This document shows positions 34,736 to 58,834 of a stretch of DNA of 64,000 bases, piece by piece. Positions within the stretch are counted from its first letter, which is position 1. Each line of letters opens with the position of its first letter. The notes under the pieces were generated by a model. It was not told the DNA's origin and made no database searches. It saw only the letters and a program-made list of their open reading frames with translations. Source of the stretch: Escherichia coli phage phiS; the sequence record PP449093.1. The stretch is one strand, 5' to 3'. Made by a program: the position numbers and the translations under genes.

Positions 34736-34993
34736 ATGAATAGAAGTTTTGATTTTATGTTCGCCAAGTATCATCGAGACAAGAAATCGATGGACCTGTT
34801 TATGAAATGTCTGAGGTATGAATATGCGCACCTTCGTAAACACAAAATTGACCCGCAAGTTTCCTACGAAAACATCAAGAAATATGCGAAAGAAGTGATT
34901 GACAACGATTGCACCGTGACATATAATGCGTTTATTGATTTATGGGCGTGGGATGTAATCTACGCAGAGATGGACAAAGAAGATTTTAATTAA
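34736..34993 (+). CDS. Hypothetical protein (85 aa)
   Basis: RBS AAGGAG. Confidence 0.5.
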   Translation: MNRSFDFMFAKYHRDKKSMDLFMKCLRYEYAHLRKHKIDPQVSYENIKKYAKEVIDNDCTVTYNAFIDLWAWDVIYAEMDKEDFN

Positions 34994-35007: not shown

Positions 35008-37116
35008 ATGAAAATGCATATTGATAATGAAGAAGTATTTGGTAGTGACCTGAGCGGTGCGGTTGATTTTTCACTGAAAGCAAGTAGCAAGGCTTTTATG
35101 GTGCTTTCTAAGAATACCTATCAATATTGTGAGCGTGCTTGCGTCCGTGAATATTCATGTAATGCTACCGACACTCACAAAGAAGCCGGAACCTTAGACC
35201 GTCCGTTTGATATTCATTTACCGACTGCAATCGAACCGTATTTTTCTGTGCGTGATTATGGTACTGGTATTCCGTCTAAGAAAGAATTAGAACAACTGTT
35301 TACGGTTTACTTTGAATCAACAAAAGACCAGACTAATGACTATATCGGATCTTTTGGTTTAGGTGCGAAGTCTGCGTATAGCTATACCGACACCTTTACA
35401 ATCGTAAACTATTACAATGGTCGCGCTTATGGCTTTACAGCATTTGTGCAAAACTCTATGCCGAAAATGGTGCAGATTTTCGACGAACCGACCTATGAAG
35501 ACAATGGTCTGAAAATCACTATTCCGGTGAAAGAAAAAGACATTCAGACATGGCATCGAGAAGCGCAATTTGTACTGCGTCATTTTGGGGAACACAAACC
35601 TAATATCAATGCAATCGAAATTAATTATTTCCCTAGCTTTGATAATTATTATGTGTGTAATGGGCGTGATAACGATTCCTATGTAGTATATGCAATCATG
35701 GGTAAGATTCAGTATCCGATCCCGTATGAATATGTTCGCGGAACATGGTTAGAAGCTGTAAACCGCCAGCACCAGACCATTTACATTAATTTTGAGTTGG
35801 GTGATCTGGACCTGATGCCATCGCGTGAAGAAGTTCACTTGTCAATTGAGACTAAAGCGAACATCGAAAAACGTATTGCAGAAATCAATGAAATGATGTT
35901 GGAAAAGGTCAAAGAGAAGATCGCCAACATTAAAACAGAGCGTAAACTTGCGCAATTTATGAGCGAGTATTCATCGACTCAACGCAATATTATTAGCAAG
36001 ATGGGTAAGATCGGACAATGGGATGATCCGGTAGCAATCTATAATAAGTTTGTGAATGCGGGTAAAGATTCGCCTAATGACGTAGAAGGTCAGGTGTATA
36101 CTCTGTATCGTACTCGTCACACAATCAGTAAATTGCGCCCTGCTTTCGTTAGAAGTCAATACAACATTACGCATTTTGTATGGATGCATAAAGAAGATAT
36201 TCTGTGTGTAATTGATGATACCGATAAACCGAAACTGCGTGCACTGACTCTTAACGGCATGGTCCAGGAATACGGAATCAATAAAAAGGTACTTGTGTTC
36301 CGTCAGCGCAACGAAAAACATATGGAGACTTTCGAGTACATCAAACAGTATTATGATGATTCTGAAATGACCGTGATTAAAGTGTCTGAGGCCGATGATC
36401 TGCGTGCTAAAGCAGTTAAACCGGAGAAGACCGAGCGTACACAACATGAAGCGACTCCTAAGCTGCCTAACGTGTATATCATGGAAAAGATTGGTGACAG
36501 TTGGCATAAAACCAGCCATCACATGAAAGCGGCAGAGATTCGCGAGTTATCAGGCTTGCACATGTTCCGCGTAGGTGATGCATTCGAAAGCCGTAGTCGT
36601 AAATCGATCCATAGTGAAAATACATTACACACGGCGCTTGACTACTTCGGGGTAACAAAGTATATTATTACCCGTAACGAGACACAAAAATATCTCGTTG
36701 ACGAACAATTGGAATGTGCGCTAGAATTTGTTCGCGGTAAGCTGGCTGGTCTGGCTAAGAAGGTTAAGACCAATCATCTGGGGTATGGCGAATATCTGGG
36801 TGTGATCACTATGTTGTTTCATGACGATGAACTAGAACGCTGTGTTCCAGAATTTATTGACAGACTGTACGGTCGTCATTATAATAAAGAGGTTTCCAAG
36901 TTACTCCTTCGCACCCGTTGGATTATGGACGAAGAAACTAAAAAGATTTGTGATGAAAAATTCACGGCAGCAAACGAACGAATTAAAGCAGTTTGTGCGA
37001 AGTTTAAAGAGAATAGCCCGTTACTGTATGATATTGTAGATAACTGGTATCGTATTCTGCATAACGACAAACGCGCACAAGACTTTATGAAACTGGTTAA
37101 GAATGTTAAATTTTAA
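35008..37116 (+). CDS. rIIA: rIIA protein (GHKL-ATPase-like)
   Basis: 702 aa with DYGTGIP and GSFGLGAKS motifs; sits between 39 and rIIB as in T4. Confidence 0.85.
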   Translation: MKMHIDNEEVFGSDLSGAVDFSLKASSKAFMVLSKNTYQYCERACVREYSCNATDTHKEAGTLDRPFDIHLPTAIEPYFSVRDYGTGIPSKKELEQLFTVYFESTKDQTNDYIGSFGLGAKSAYSYTDTFTIVNYYNGRAYGFTAFVQNSMPKMVQIFDEPTYEDNGLKITIPVKEKDIQTWHREAQFVLRHFGEHKPNINAIEINYFPSFDNYYVCNGRDNDSYVVYAIMGKIQYPIPYEYVRGTWLEAVNRQHQTIYINFELGDLDLMPSREEVHLSIETKANIEKRIAEINEMMLEKVKEKIANIKTERKLAQFMSEYSSTQRNIISKMGKIGQWDDPVAIYNKFVNAGKDSPNDVEGQVYTLYRTRHTISKLRPAFVRSQYNITHFVWMHKEDILCVIDDTDKPKLRALTLNGMVQEYGINKKVLVFRQRNEKHMETFEYIKQYYDDSEMTVIKVSEADDLRAKAVKPEKTERTQHEATPKLPNVYIMEKIGDSWHKTSHHMKAAEIRELSGLHMFRVGDAFESRSRKSIHSENTLHTALDYFGVTKYIITRNETQKYLVDEQLECALEFVRGKLAGLAKKVKTNHLGYGEYLGVITMLFHDDELERCVPEFIDRLYGRHYNKEVSKLLLRTRWIMDEETKKICDEKFTAANERIKAVCAKFKENSPLLYDIVDNWYRILHNDKRAQDFMKLVKNVKF

Positions 37117-37127
37117 GAGGTGATATT

Positions 37128-37259
37128 ATGACTAAACTGACCGCTATCCAGAAAGAAACCATCCGTAAACAATACGCTCGCGGCTTGACTAAAGGCGAAC
37201 TGGCACGAATCTATAATGTATCAGACCGCACAATCCGCAAGGTTGTAGAAGCAAAATAA
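37128..37259 (+). CDS. Small helix-turn-helix protein (43 aa)
   Basis: My own translation; RBS GAGGTGA. GLTKGELARIYNVSDRTIRKVV is a classic HTH. Confidence 0.4.
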   Translation: MTKLTAIQKETIRKQYARGLTKGELARIYNVSDRTIRKVVEAK

Positions 37260-37321
37260 TTCTGGTATAATGATGTGAATCGGGCGGCGATAGTCGCCCA
37301 ACTAATAGAGGAATGAATACT

Positions 37322-38314
37322 ATGACTAAAGCAAAAATCACCGTCTCTGACCGTAACGTTCAATGCCTGGATTCTGCGAAACAAATCAAACTGGCTAAAC
37401 AGTGGGGCGAAGGTAAGTTTACTACCCGCGAAGCACTTGCGGCAGCATTTGGTGTATCTCGTCGTACTGCTTCCCGTGTATTACTGATTCAGAAAGACGC
37501 AGTAGCGGAAGGTCGCAAGGCACTAGAAAAACGTAAAGCACGCCGTAAAACAAGTAAAGGAAAAGGCGGTGAACGCGCAAAAAAGCCCGTGACTACTACC
37601 TCAAAAATCGTAGCCATAGCCTCAACTAAGTTTATTACTATTACATGCGGTGACATTGTTTATATTGCTGATCCATCACATGTTAACTTTAAGGAAGCAC
37701 TGGAAGCAGTTAAGCAGAATGATTTTATTAAAGCAATTACGCTGATTGACATTAAGAAAGCGGTTGAAGTATATTATCACGGCGCTTTCCGTATCGAAAA
37801 TGGTATTGTGTATTATCATAATATTGTTCTTGATAATAATCTGACTCGTCGAGTTGTTGAGTCTATTAAAGAGAATAAGCCATATACGCACTATCTGAAC
37901 TTCTTTGAGAAGTGCAAGAAAAACCCTAGCCGTAAGGCGGTAGATCGTCTGTTTGACTTCTTAGAACACAACGACATTGAGATCGGGGAAGATGGTTGTT
38001 TCTATGCATGGAAACGTGTTGATGTTGATTATAAAGATTTCTTTACGCATACGTTTGATAATAGCCCAGGGCGCACGGTTAAAATGAAGCGTAAAGACGT
38101 TGGCCCAGATGATGATCGCACTTGCTCTAATGGCCTCCACGTTGCAGCGAAACACTATATTCCACACTATGGCGGTGGACGAGGCCGAATCATTAAATGT
38201 AAAGTTGATCCGCGTCACGTTGTAAGTATCCCGAAAGATTATGCGAATGCCAAAATGCGCTGTCATCGTTACTATGTGGTTGAAGATGTAACCGAAGGTT
38301 TTAGCCATTACTAA
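37322..38314 (+). CDS. rIIB: rIIB protein
   Basis: SRKAVDRLFDFLEHNDIEIGEDGCFYAWK...TCSNGLHVAAKHYIPHYG...DPRHVVSIPKDYANAKMRCHRYYVVEDVTE matches the T4 rIIB C-terminal region as I recall it. Confidence 0.85.
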   Translation: MTKAKITVSDRNVQCLDSAKQIKLAKQWGEGKFTTREALAAAFGVSRRTASRVLLIQKDAVAEGRKALEKRKARRKTSKGKGGERAKKPVTTTSKIVAIASTKFITITCGDIVYIADPSHVNFKEALEAVKQNDFIKAITLIDIKKAVEVYYHGAFRIENGIVYYHNIVLDNNLTRRVVESIKENKPYTHYLNFFEKCKKNPSRKAVDRLFDFLEHNDIEIGEDGCFYAWKRVDVDYKDFFTHTFDNSPGRTVKMKRKDVGPDDDRTCSNGLHVAAKHYIPHYGGGRGRIIKCKVDPRHVVSIPKDYANAKMRCHRYYVVEDVTEGFSHY

Positions 38315-38328
38315 CAGAGGAATTAATT

Positions 38329-38655
38329 ATGGTTGATATGAAAGTTACTTGCGAAAGTGCACATGTTGAAGTTGAAAGTAGCCAATATTCATTGCGTCCG
38401 TCCGGTCGCGTTACTGTGACTATGGATGATGTTGATTTGGTTAATAATGTTAGTGTTGAAGATATCGTTAATGAGTATGATCATAGCGAACTGCTAGACG
38501 CAATTCCTGAACATGTTGTGATCCAGCACGTAGTAAGCAATAATGATCCATCGACTTTCATTAAAGAATATGGCGCTGATGAAATGCTCGATGAAATTGG
38601 CGAAAAGATTGTTATTGCATGGCTTGAAAACAACGGCTATACTGTAGAACAATAA
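38329..38655 (+). CDS. Hypothetical highly acidic protein (108 aa)
   Basis: About 25 percent Asp/Glu and no Cys clusters; candidate DNA-mimic-type protein. Confidence 0.5.
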   Translation: MVDMKVTCESAHVEVESSQYSLRPSGRVTVTMDDVDLVNNVSVEDIVNEYDHSELLDAIPEHVVIQHVVSNNDPSTFIKEYGADEMLDEIGEKIVIAWLENNGYTVEQ

Positions 38656-38700
38656 TCAACATAGGCCGCTTTGCGCGGCCTTTCTTAGAGGGAATACATT

Positions 38701-41447: not shown

Positions 41448-41720
41448 ATGTGCAACGAAAACAGCAAAGTGTTGGCAATTGCAGATAAAGTAGGTTACTG
41501 GAAATGCTGGGATGATATGGAGAAATTAGGCGGTCGCTATCTCGATAACTTAGAGTTGCATTATTGCCAAGCGCGTAATGCAGAAGTTGCGGGAGTAGCA
41601 ATCGAAGATATTCCGTCTAAAGTCTTCGGATTCTCTAAAGATGATACTCTAGAGTATGTTTTTAAGGCTGTAATGGATCAAGCATGGGAAGACGCAGAGA
41701 CACGCGCTCTTGATTGGTGA
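41448..41720 (+). CDS. Hypothetical protein (90 aa)
   Basis: ATG after AAGGAGAA. Confidence 0.5.
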   Translation: MCNENSKVLAIADKVGYWKCWDDMEKLGGRYLDNLELHYCQARNAEVAGVAIEDIPSKVFGFSKDDTLEYVFKAVMDQAWEDAETRALDW

Positions 41721-44233: not shown

Positions 44234-44566
44234 ATGAAAAATGTACTGATTGTGTGGGAACTGATTCCAGAAACTACTGAATTATACATGGTACAGGTTG
44301 ACAATAAAGAATTTGAAATTCTGAAACGCGTCAACTGCAAATATATTAACATTGATGACATGACCCCAGAAATGGACTATGTAAACTATGCTCTCATGCA
44401 GCCTAGTTGGATTATGGATGAAACTAAAGCAGACGCCGAATCACTGGGTGTACCGGAAGAAGTATTAGCGAAATGGCATCAATTCAAAGTTGAAATAAAA
44501 GAGGGTGAACCGTTTATTCCTAGCGGTATGATCGATGCGGTGATTGTAACAGGTTTTCATCTGTAA
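44234..44566 (+). CDS. Hypothetical protein (110 aa)
   Basis: ORF from the track. Confidence 0.5.
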   Translation: MKNVLIVWELIPETTELYMVQVDNKEFEILKRVNCKYINIDDMTPEMDYVNYALMQPSWIMDETKADAESLGVPEEVLAKWHQFKVEIKEGEPFIPSGMIDAVIVTGFHL

Positions 44567-44578
44567 GGACATTATACA

Positions 44579-44911
44579 ATGTTTAATTATGACAAATATG
44601 AATCATGGAAAGCAACCGAATTGAAAGAGGCAGCGCGGTTAATCACACCGCGTCTTTATCCGGTGTTGTTTAGCGCCGATAAAGTAACAAGGGAAGTAAA
44701 CGAGGCGCTATCGGTTTTAGGCTATCTGATCGATAAAGTAGAGAAAACATCGGTATTCACAAATAGCGTAGAATATACCAGATATCGAGTGTTTTTAGAT
44801 TCCTTGCTCGTTGTCATTAAGGCACTAAATGATCATAACTACACCATGAACATGACGAAAATAATCGACGAAGCAAGAATTATGACAGAGAATATTTTCG
44901 GTAAATTTTGA
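44579..44911 (+). CDS. Hypothetical protein (110 aa), paralog of 45026..45349
   Basis: C-terminus IDEARIMTENIFGKF is paralogous to VKDARKLAENVYGKF. Confidence 0.5.
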   Translation: MFNYDKYESWKATELKEAARLITPRLYPVLFSADKVTREVNEALSVLGYLIDKVEKTSVFTNSVEYTRYRVFLDSLLVVIKALNDHNYTMNMTKIIDEARIMTENIFGKF

Positions 44912-45025: not shown

Positions 45026-45349
45026 ATGATCGAGTTTGAAATTGACAACTTTCACGAAAAAGCAGAAGACCTAACCAAAATTTTGATTAGTCGAGGTGCA
45101 TATAATACGAAAGATATTATAAAAGAAGTTAATGTAGCGATGGACGCGATCCGAAAGGAATTTAAACACATTTCAGCGATTGGAGAAAATGGTCATCTTG
45201 AAGATGTTGAGCTGGTAGCACTGCGACGCTATTACTTCTTTGTTGATTGTATCATTGATCTAGCTAAAAATTATAGTCATTACATGAAAGATATTGTAAA
45301 AGATGCACGTAAGCTGGCAGAGAATGTTTACGGGAAGTTTCCAGAATGA
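45026..45349 (+). CDS. Hypothetical protein (107 aa), paralog of 44579..44911
   Basis: As above; RBS GAGAGGTGA. Confidence 0.5.
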   Translation: MIEFEIDNFHEKAEDLTKILISRGAYNTKDIIKEVNVAMDAIRKEFKHISAIGENGHLEDVELVALRRYYFFVDCIIDLAKNYSHYMKDIVKDARKLAENVYGKFPE

Positions 45350-58237: not shown

Positions 58238-58834
58238 ATGAAAGAACTTGAATTAAAATACTATGCACACTCACAAATTGGCGTCGAAACCATCTGTGAT
58301 TTGTGGGTAGCAATGTATGACGGGTACAATCTCGTAGACCGAGATAACATTCTAAAACACGAATTTTATTATGATACCGAAGATCATGCACTGCGTCGAA
58401 AAGGAATTTATGCTCGACTTGACGTTAATAGATCATTGATCATGGTCAAAATAGGTGATGGTGAATCTGGACCATTCAACCGAGAAGAAATTACTTTTTC
58501 AACAATGGATGATTTCTATCATTATGTTGATAGTCTGGGTGTTAACTCCGACCTTATCGTTCCTTTACTGCAAGTAAAGACATATCGCAAGTCATTGACA
58601 CTTGACCTTGAGGGTGCTATAGTGGAAATGTGCAAAGACACTTTCTATTATTGCATAGTCGGCGAAAGAATGGGAGAGGCTCACTATGAACTTGAGTTCG
58701 AGTTAAAATCAGGTGATGAAAAAGCACTTGGCATTATCCGAGAAATGATGCTAGAATATGTGGGTGACGATTTAAGTCCTAGCGAAATCTCAAAAGCTGA
58801 ACGTGGTTTTCAATTAATGACGAAAGAGGGTTAA
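58238..58834 (+). CDS. CYTH-like (triphosphate tunnel metalloenzyme / class IV adenylyl cyclase-like) protein, 198 aa
   Basis: N-terminal ExExK (MKELELKY), paired Arg (ALRRKG), C-terminal acidic strand HYELEFELK; about 200 aa. An insertion relative to the T4 rnh-dsbA junction as I recall it. Confidence 0.5.
   Translation: MKELELKYYAHSQIGVETICDLWVAMYDGYNLVDRDNILKHEFYYDTEDHALRRKGIYARLDVNRSLIMVKIGDGESGPFNREEITFSTMDDFYHYVDSLGVNSDLIVPLLQVKTYRKSLTLDLEGAIVEMCKDTFYYCIVGERMGEAHYELEFELKSGDEKALGIIREMMLEYVGDDLSPSEISKAERGFQLMTKEG

Follow-up and report, generated by a model that had tools for sequence, protein, structure and literature searches.

T4 Arn is a DNA-mimic inhibitor of McrBC, which targets modified cytosine, and binding of Arn to H-NS has also been reported. 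In lambda and P22, the stretch between N and cIII holds ral and other host-interference genes. T7 Ocr (gp0.3) is a DNA-mimic inhibitor of type I restriction-modification (R-M) and of BREX (PMC11341690). Wang et al. (2013) characterized DNA mimics by a length of less than 200 aa, at least 10 surface Asp/Glu residues, and a surface that is at least 10% negative (PMC3902945). Here we describe a small, very acidic protein of an RB49-like phage and compare it with these systems. A literature search found nothing on any member of its family.

The window, i.e. the whole stretch of 64,000 nucleotides that was analyzed, is a Krischvirus (RB49-like) genome: the 3 kb around the acidic gene are 97–99% identical to 58 phage genomes, all of them Krischvirus, including RB49, Phi1, JSE, GEC-3S, TB34, SAP, and kaaroe. 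Krischvirus forms the 'pseudo-T-even' group among the T4-type coliphages. The initial annotation had placed a 108-aa open reading frame (ORF) 3' of rIIB, and this was confirmed by the match of the upstream 333-aa protein to the rIIB family (Table 1). The genes follow each other in the order rIIA, a 43-aa ORF, rIIB, the acidic gene, a 97-aa ORF, a 120-aa ORF, and gene 52, the product of which is the topoisomerase II medium subunit. In RB49 the acidic gene is RB49p272 (NP_891843.1), and 'hypothetical protein' is its sole annotation there and in all 58 genomes. In the T4 reference genome, the interval between rIIB and 52 contains denB, ndd, ndd.1–6, stp, and ac. By position, the Krischvirus acidic gene occupies this host-takeover slot, and it is orthologous to none of the T4 occupants. 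The family HMM detected no T4 homologue in the rIIB–52 or arn regions (ndd.1, denB.1, asiA.1, and arn.1–4).

The acidic gene starts 14 nt past the rIIB stop codon, and this gap is too short for a promoter of its own, so that the gene would be read from the rIIB transcript. The AGAGGAA within the gap probably serves as its strong ribosome-binding site. The two perfect sigma-70 sites, upstream of rIIA and of rIIB, are candidate early promoters for a unit of rIIA, rIIB, and the acidic gene, in a consensus scan whose total number of sites was not above the shuffle expectation. Early co-transcription of the acidic gene with the rII genes is suggested by this arrangement. The GC-rich hairpin behind the gene (RNA fold −13.6 kcal/mol, z −2.4) is possibly a weak intrinsic terminator or an RNA-stability element on the plus strand; the consensus scan gave it on the minus strand only.

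Table 1. Coordinates of the acidic gene, its parts, and other features of the window
Feature	Position	Strand	Size or residues	Description and basis
Sigma-70 consensus-like site upstream of rIIA	34899..34927	+		TTGACA-17-TATAAT; 12/12 matches
Second perfect sigma-70 consensus site, upstream of rIIB	36857-36885	+
ORF in the rIIA-rIIB interval	37128-37259	+	43 aa	Bare helix-turn-helix (HTH); Pfam CENP-B_N, E 7e-6; PHROG 15481; conserved as RB49p274
rIIB	37313..38314	+	333 aa	PHROG 609 'RIIB lysis inhibitor', E 3.7e-105
Shine-Dalgarno-like AGAGGAA	38316..38322	+		6 nt 5' of ATG, 1 nt past rIIB stop codon; read from sequence
Acidic-protein CDS	38329..38655	+	108 codons	ATG to TAA; ORF list and sequence
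N-terminal beta-hairpin region (predicted)	38341..38427	+	Residues 5-33	AF2 strands 10-16 and 27-33; column statistics
Internal repeat, copy 1	38467..38541	+	Residues 47-71	VNEYDHSELLDAIPEHVVIQHVVSN; self-alignment
31-residue insertion	38482-38574		Residues ~52-82	Missing from 70-77-aa members
Internal repeat, copy 2	38560..38634	+	Residues 78-102	IKEYGADEMLDEIGEKIVIAWLENN; self-alignment and family alignments
GC-rich hairpin	38663..38686	+		7-bp stem AGGCCGC/GCGGCCU, 5-nt loop, then UUCUU; just past stop codon
Further acidic ORF	41448-41720	+	90 aa	pI 4.44; match to a PHROG of no known function
Further acidic ORF	44234-44566	+	110 aa	Net charge -11, pI 4.41; match to a PHROG of no known function
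PHROG 9457 ORF	44579-44911	+	~110 aa	E 3e-43
PHROG 9457 ORF	45026-45349	+	~110 aa	E 8e-57
Further acidic ORF	58238-58834	+	198 aa	Net charge -16, pI 4.67

Some other ORFs of the window were characterized alongside. The 43-aa HTH ORF gives a weak match to the rIIB PHROG profile within its HTH segment (E 0.009); that it is a copy of the rIIB N-terminus was rejected, as BLASTP showed no similarity to that region. The rIIB protein itself is strongly basic (net charge +22, pI 9.6), with an HTH-like segment at residues 37–57 and a Lys/Arg-rich linker. It is conceivable that rIIB (net +22) binds the acidic protein (net −18) directly; the prophage contexts described below, which lack rIIB, give no support for this. 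The two adjoining PHROG 9457 ORFs appear to be paralogues.

The acidic protein contains 23 Asp and Glu among its 108 residues (21.3%), i.e. about one in five, and the 'one in four' of the initial annotation was an overstatement. A pI calculation, proposed there as a check, gave 4.09 at a net charge of −18, with only 5 Lys and Arg, and thus a very acidic protein. No other ATG-started plus-strand ORF of 60 aa or more in the 64-kb window, not even one of 892 aa with a net charge of −16, has as high an Asp+Glu fraction, as low a pI, or as negative a net charge. Its distinguishing trait is the near absence of basic residues. As had been stated, the acidic residues are distributed along the entire chain, which is evident from the charge string. 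The reported lack of enzymatic motifs also holds: Pfam (E up to 1, in a second scan up to 5), NCBIfam and PADLOC (both E up to 1) gave no match, PDB sequences (E up to 10) gave matches at chance level only, for the single protein as well as for profiles, and these library searches revealed neither an enzyme nor a DNA-binding domain. Pfam searches with 43 members of the family yielded nothing beyond chance level, and a sigma-70 region 1.1 match of one member (E 0.086) was regarded as noise.

For comparison, the sequences of T7 Ocr and T4 Arn were taken from the reference genomes. Ocr has 117 aa, 29% Asp+Glu, and a net charge of −28 (−0.239 per residue), and Arn has 92 aa, 17% Asp+Glu, and a net charge of −9 (−0.098 per residue); the charge density of the acidic protein (108 aa, 21%, −18, −0.167 per residue) falls between the two. 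Like Ocr, it is small, very acidic, and non-enzymatic, and it would be expressed early. Like Arn (pI 4.55), it is acidic and of similar size, and the two genes share the early arm of T4-type genomes. Its composition also agrees with the description of DNA mimics cited above (108 aa, 23 Asp/Glu, 21%), where surface exposure is assumed from the amphipathic pattern (PMC3902945). The original proposal, a DNA-mimic candidate of the Ocr/Arn type, is partly supported. No sequence similarity to Ocr, Arn, or any other known mimic or anti-defense protein was found, and the model described below, which is confident only locally, gave no fold match. The family HMM scored 1.3 bits against T7 Ocr and 1.0 bit against T4 Arn, i.e. 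no similarity; Ocr and Arn entries were absent from the PDB sequence profile matches (E up to 10); and neither the acidic protein nor the 43 family members had a Pfam match to Ocr, ArdA, KlcA, or Ral beyond chance. Moreover, Ocr is all-helical, whereas the acidic protein is predicted to form a beta-hairpin and helices, and arn lies between asiA and motA, whereas the acidic gene lies between rIIB and gene 52. The more general idea of an early acidic inhibitor, possibly a nucleic-acid mimic, is plausible from the sequence data.

The gene was found in 58 of 58 Krischvirus records, each of which matched both the 3-kb region and the protein, with protein identities of 86–100% (98.1% for the TB34 orthologue). 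When the window copy was compared with those of RB49, Skers, UPWr_E1, and SSG23, dN/dS was 0.12–0.25 (Nei-Gojobori). These results demonstrate a real gene that is subject to purifying selection. When the window was compared with three divergent Krischvirus copies, every amino-acid change and every indel fell within residues 1–54, and residues 55–108 showed 4–7 synonymous and no non-synonymous differences in the same three comparisons. In nucleotide terms, dS was about 0.9 for positions 38329–38490 versus 0.24 for 38491–38655, and the flanking rIIB showed 96.7% nucleotide identity. This sharp contrast between the 5' and 3' parts has the appearance of a recombination or mosaic junction within the gene. 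The pattern is suggestive of the exchange of an N-terminal module and is no evidence of positive selection; the N-terminal half is a local hotspot of divergence, such as occurs in mosaic host-interaction genes. Two Krischvirus alleles from metagenome assemblies are defective: the reading frame of P0007 shifts past about residue 75, and P0008 is cut off at residue 78. Either the assemblies are in error, or the C-terminal repeat was lost naturally.

In the PHROG library, the protein matched PHROG 14049 over its whole length (E 5.2e-66, residues 1–108 on profile positions 1–108 of 108) and, more weakly, PHROG 7311, which has no known function; PHROG 11519 is linked to it via the family. PHROG 14049 was matched by all 43 aligned family members, PHROG 7311 by 42, and PHROG 11519 by 22. 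The acidic protein belongs to these groups, to which no function is attached, so that membership explains no mechanism. A word-indexed search of 5.8 billion proteins returned near-identical Krischvirus copies only, and an exhaustive HMMER search of 1.84 billion representatives returned two remote relatives of about 103 aa and several of 73–76 aa. Two profile searches led to about 90 clusters, all of them nameless and free of Pfam domains, and their sources were Yersinia (many), E. coli, Citrobacter, Cronobacter, Lelliottia, Pantoea, Izhakiella, Providencia, Proteus, Vibrio, and metagenomes. Lambdoid prophages of Yersinia, E. coli, Citrobacter, Proteus, and Vibrio encode short members of 70–77 residues. 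Overall, the family is rare: a search of 5,426 complete E. coli genomes gave no close DNA match to the allele from the E. coli prophage, 14 loci were present in IMG/VR, and a narrow pattern matched just 2 of 185,579 species-representative genomes.

Even at 25–45% identity and in unrelated phage types, the remote homologues keep a family signature, (D/E)IV.EY...(D/E)LL..IG...ϕI.WLE..GYTV, at the C-terminus. N-terminal of it lie two beta-strand-like segments, ϕKϕK followed by ϕEϕEϕ. The conserved aromatic and hydrophobic residues of the signature are Y50, W98, L87, I90, G103, and V106. Acidity is a property of the whole family, with 20–28% Asp+Glu in every member and, in the intact ones, a net charge of −9 to −20 and a pI of 4.05–4.4. 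In about a dozen columns of the alignment, acidic residues account for at least 50%, and conserved basic residues are restricted to the first strand. The protein is best placed in an uncharacterized, mobile family of small acidic early accessory proteins.

The genomic contexts of the relatives bear on this description. The closest long form (P0009, 41–43% identity) is encoded on another T4-type contig, two genes upstream of gene 52 and syntenic with the window, and the 103-aa form P0012 lies in a block of small early genes on a 135-kb phage contig. In lambdoid prophages of Yersinia, E. coli, and Proteus, the short forms belong to the pL (early-left) operon, which runs leftward from the cI/N region, and they have N on their upstream side and cIII, kil, and the Erf/RecT/exonuclease/SSB genes on their downstream side. 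This is the N–cIII/kil stretch in which the pL accessory genes of lambda and P22 reside; among such accessory proteins are Ral and the RecBCD inhibitors Gam and Abc2, with T7 gp5.9 as a further RecBCD inhibitor. These differ from the acidic family in that they share no homology with it, and no Ral Pfam match occurred in the contexts shown. In Vibrio prophages the family gene is located between a RecT and exonuclease module and Dam, and on metagenomic siphophage contigs just upstream of exonuclease/DUF2800/SSB or RecT/Gp157 genes. Kagunavirus ST20, Xuquatrovirus Pondi, and several Vibrio phages have weak relatives, again in early blocks, and some contexts adjoin helicase-primase, a PD-(D/E)XK nuclease, or polymerase. 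Wherever it was located, the family gene lay in an early accessory block. No neighbor gene was conserved across the contexts compared.

Several neighbors were examined individually. A gene of about 320–360 aa that frequently lies 3' of the short homologues in Yersinia prophages belongs to PHROG 1376; it was considered as a relative of rIIB, which would have made a recurrent pair of rIIB and acidic protein, and this was rejected (BLASTP E 1.2). A basic partner next door, as in antitoxin- or chaperone-like pairs, was likewise rejected, as the neighbors have no consistent charge. Since no neighbor is consistently basic, the partner of the acidic protein is probably not a cognate phage protein encoded next to it. 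In a Yersinia massiliensis prophage, the pL-type operon of the short family member also includes, two genes ahead of it, the gene of a 157-aa pentapeptide-repeat protein (L010, 5266–5739). Pentapeptide-repeat proteins include the DNA mimics Qnr and MfpA. In the Vibrio prophages, the YqaJ-type exonuclease (562–579 aa; L015 3515–5254, L016 3568–5256) bears the Pfam domain Phage_T7_Gp5_9. It therefore appears that, three genes upstream of the family member, a YqaJ exonuclease is fused to a RecBCD-inhibitor-like module.

The Krischvirus protein contains an internal duplication. Residues 47–71 and 78–102 align with a BLOSUM62 score of 48, compared with 18.4 ± 3.8 for shuffled sequences, none of which reached 48 in 2000 trials. 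Repeat copy 2 bears the signature EY..(D/E)LL..IG...ϕI.WLE..GYTV and is identical in every intact Krischvirus copy, and copy 1 overlaps a 31-residue insertion that separates the 103–108-aa forms from the forms of about 75 aa. The self-alignment and the insertion together indicate that the Krischvirus form arose by tandem duplication of a helical unit. In the N-terminal hairpin, strand 1 alternates hydrophobic residues with Lys across the family, strand 2 alternates hydrophobic residues with Glu, and the loop (residues 17–26) is the variable, indel-bearing part within Krischvirus.

AF2 predictions from a shallow, Krischvirus-only alignment were unusable (pLDDT 43.8), and those from 43 family sequences reached a pLDDT of 74.8 and a pTM of 0.32. 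This model contains the beta-hairpin (10–16, 27–33) and helices at 43–47, 52–58, 61–71, 74–90, and 92–101. Confidence is local only: the predicted secondary structure is credible, and the tertiary arrangement is not. A pTM of 0.32 is too low for a DNA-like charge array to be mapped on the model, and the protein may require oligomerization. In the predicted helices, which are amphipathic, acidic residues lie opposite the hydrophobic face, a pattern compatible with many functions. A fold search with this model, whose tertiary arrangement is not credible, gave no match to Ocr, Arn, ArdA, or any solved structure, and in BFVD only the protein's own orthologue and two small unnamed phage proteins were matched.

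What might such a protein do? We tentatively favor a stoichiometric acidic inhibitor of a host nucleic-acid-binding protein, acting by mimicry or by electrostatic occlusion, as a possible function, held with low confidence. A stoichiometric binder is suggested by the lack of catalytic features, the large and strictly conserved negative charge with carboxylates kept in position, and the early location beside DNA-metabolism and host-interference genes in phages of unrelated types. The small, folded accessory protein would be made early from the rIIA–rIIB transcript and would bind, stoichiometrically, a basic surface of another protein, so blocking its partner. The probable target would be a host nucleic-acid binder, e.g. 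a nuclease or defense component or a protein of the nucleoid or of DNA metabolism, and inhibition would be of the nucleic-acid-mimic type or electrostatic. The basic unit would be the prophage form of about 75 residues, with a Lys-rich/Glu-rich hairpin, amphipathic helices with an acidic face, and the terminal WLE..GYTV; duplication of the helical unit in Krischvirus may have enlarged the acidic surface. Some prophages encode GamL or gp5.9-like domains alongside family members, which makes RecBCD a less likely target and weakens the reading as a RecBCD inhibitor.

Nearly as likely, in our estimate, is a regulator that does not imitate DNA, i.e. an adaptor, a chaperone, an anti-factor in replication, recombination, or transcription, or a counter to an abortive-infection toxin. 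Acidity would then serve solubility or a specific interface, for example with a topoisomerase, a recombinase, or RNA polymerase. This possibility agrees with the recurrence of the family beside DNA-metabolism modules (gp52; Erf/RecT/exonuclease/SSB; helicase-primase, nuclease, and polymerase), and the conserved Y50, W98, L87, I90, G103, and V106 point to a defined fold or interface rather than a simple charge array. However, no gene partner is kept across the contexts, and the large negative charge, strictly retained in all members, exceeds the needs of solubility.

Considerably less probable is the Ocr- or Arn-type anti-restriction mimic, directed against type I R-M, BREX, or McrBC. Its size and charge density are comparable with those of Ocr and Arn, T4 arn is found in the same general arm (rIIB ... 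52 ... motA-arn-asiA), the prophage relatives sit in the N–cIII interval, which is the place of ral on the lambda map, and restriction can act on most Krischvirus DNA, as it is unmodified. Against this stand, besides the HMM scores and the lack of a Pfam or fold match given above, the published phenotypes of TB34, which carries a 98%-identical orthologue. Salmonella BREX restricts TB34 10–100-fold, and about 10^4-fold more when brxL is deleted, and T7 Ocr or SP6 Gp5 supplied in trans fully abolishes this defense (PMC11341690). As TB34 is restricted by BREX and rescued by Ocr, its gene set should lack an effective Ocr-like BREX inhibitor. An EPEC island that contains type I R-M and DarTG2 restricts TB34 about 10^4-fold (PMC12255303); this result is weaker evidence than that for BREX, as the shares of the two systems were not separated. 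Restriction of TB34 by BREX and by the island indicates that at least those systems are not neutralized, and type I R-M and BREX are improbable targets. The finding that TB34 does not trigger PARIS was set aside as uninformative, as the PARIS used by the authors was not activated even by Ocr (PMC11341690).

With respect to McrBC, TB34 DNA has canonical cytosines, and Krischvirus genomes have no genes for hydroxymethylcytosine (hmC) synthesis (PMC13390438). An Arn-like anti-McrBC role would therefore have no obvious substrate. SAP, which is 99.96% identical to TB34, reportedly has glucosylated methyl-cytosines where TB34 has canonical cytosine, and known modification genes are absent (PMC13390438). 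The last alternative, a dispensable ORFan without specific function or a non-coding stretch, accords with the bare 'hypothetical protein' label in 58 of 58 genomes, the frameshifted and truncated alleles P0007 and P0008, and the rarity of the family, but it is already largely refuted and essentially excluded by the presence of the gene in all 58 Krischvirus, the dN/dS values, residues 55–108 unchanged against three divergent copies, the same signature in remote homologues of unrelated phage types, and the strong ribosome-binding site.

In summary, the gene had already been catalogued as a hypothetical protein in PHROG 14049. New here are its tie to the pL genes of lambdoid prophages and to other early modules, the family-wide acidity, the internal duplication, and the mosaic N-terminal half. 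The gene is now a well-defined candidate, on the sequence evidence, and not a discovery. RB49-like phages have mostly unmodified DNA, are used in phage-therapy cocktails, and serve as models in defense studies (TB34), and knowing which of their early genes counter host functions would help to predict host range. If the acidic protein is an inhibitor, as we tentatively favor, the few acidic or mimic inhibitors known would be joined by one with a new fold, directed at a host factor that has to be silenced by virulent and temperate enterobacterial phages alike. A more far-reaching form of this idea, which we hold with low confidence, is an unrecognized, horizontally mobile family of acidic inhibitors with a fold of its own, made up of a K/E beta-hairpin and a repeatable helical unit, and neutralizing a host defense or nucleoid protein outside the targets of Ocr, Arn, ArdA, Ral, and Gam. 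Virulent T4-type phages, further virulent siphophages, and temperate lambdoid prophages of Enterobacterales and Vibrio would share such a family, and, if this is true, the duplicated helical unit would give the Krischvirus protein a larger mimic surface or a higher valency.
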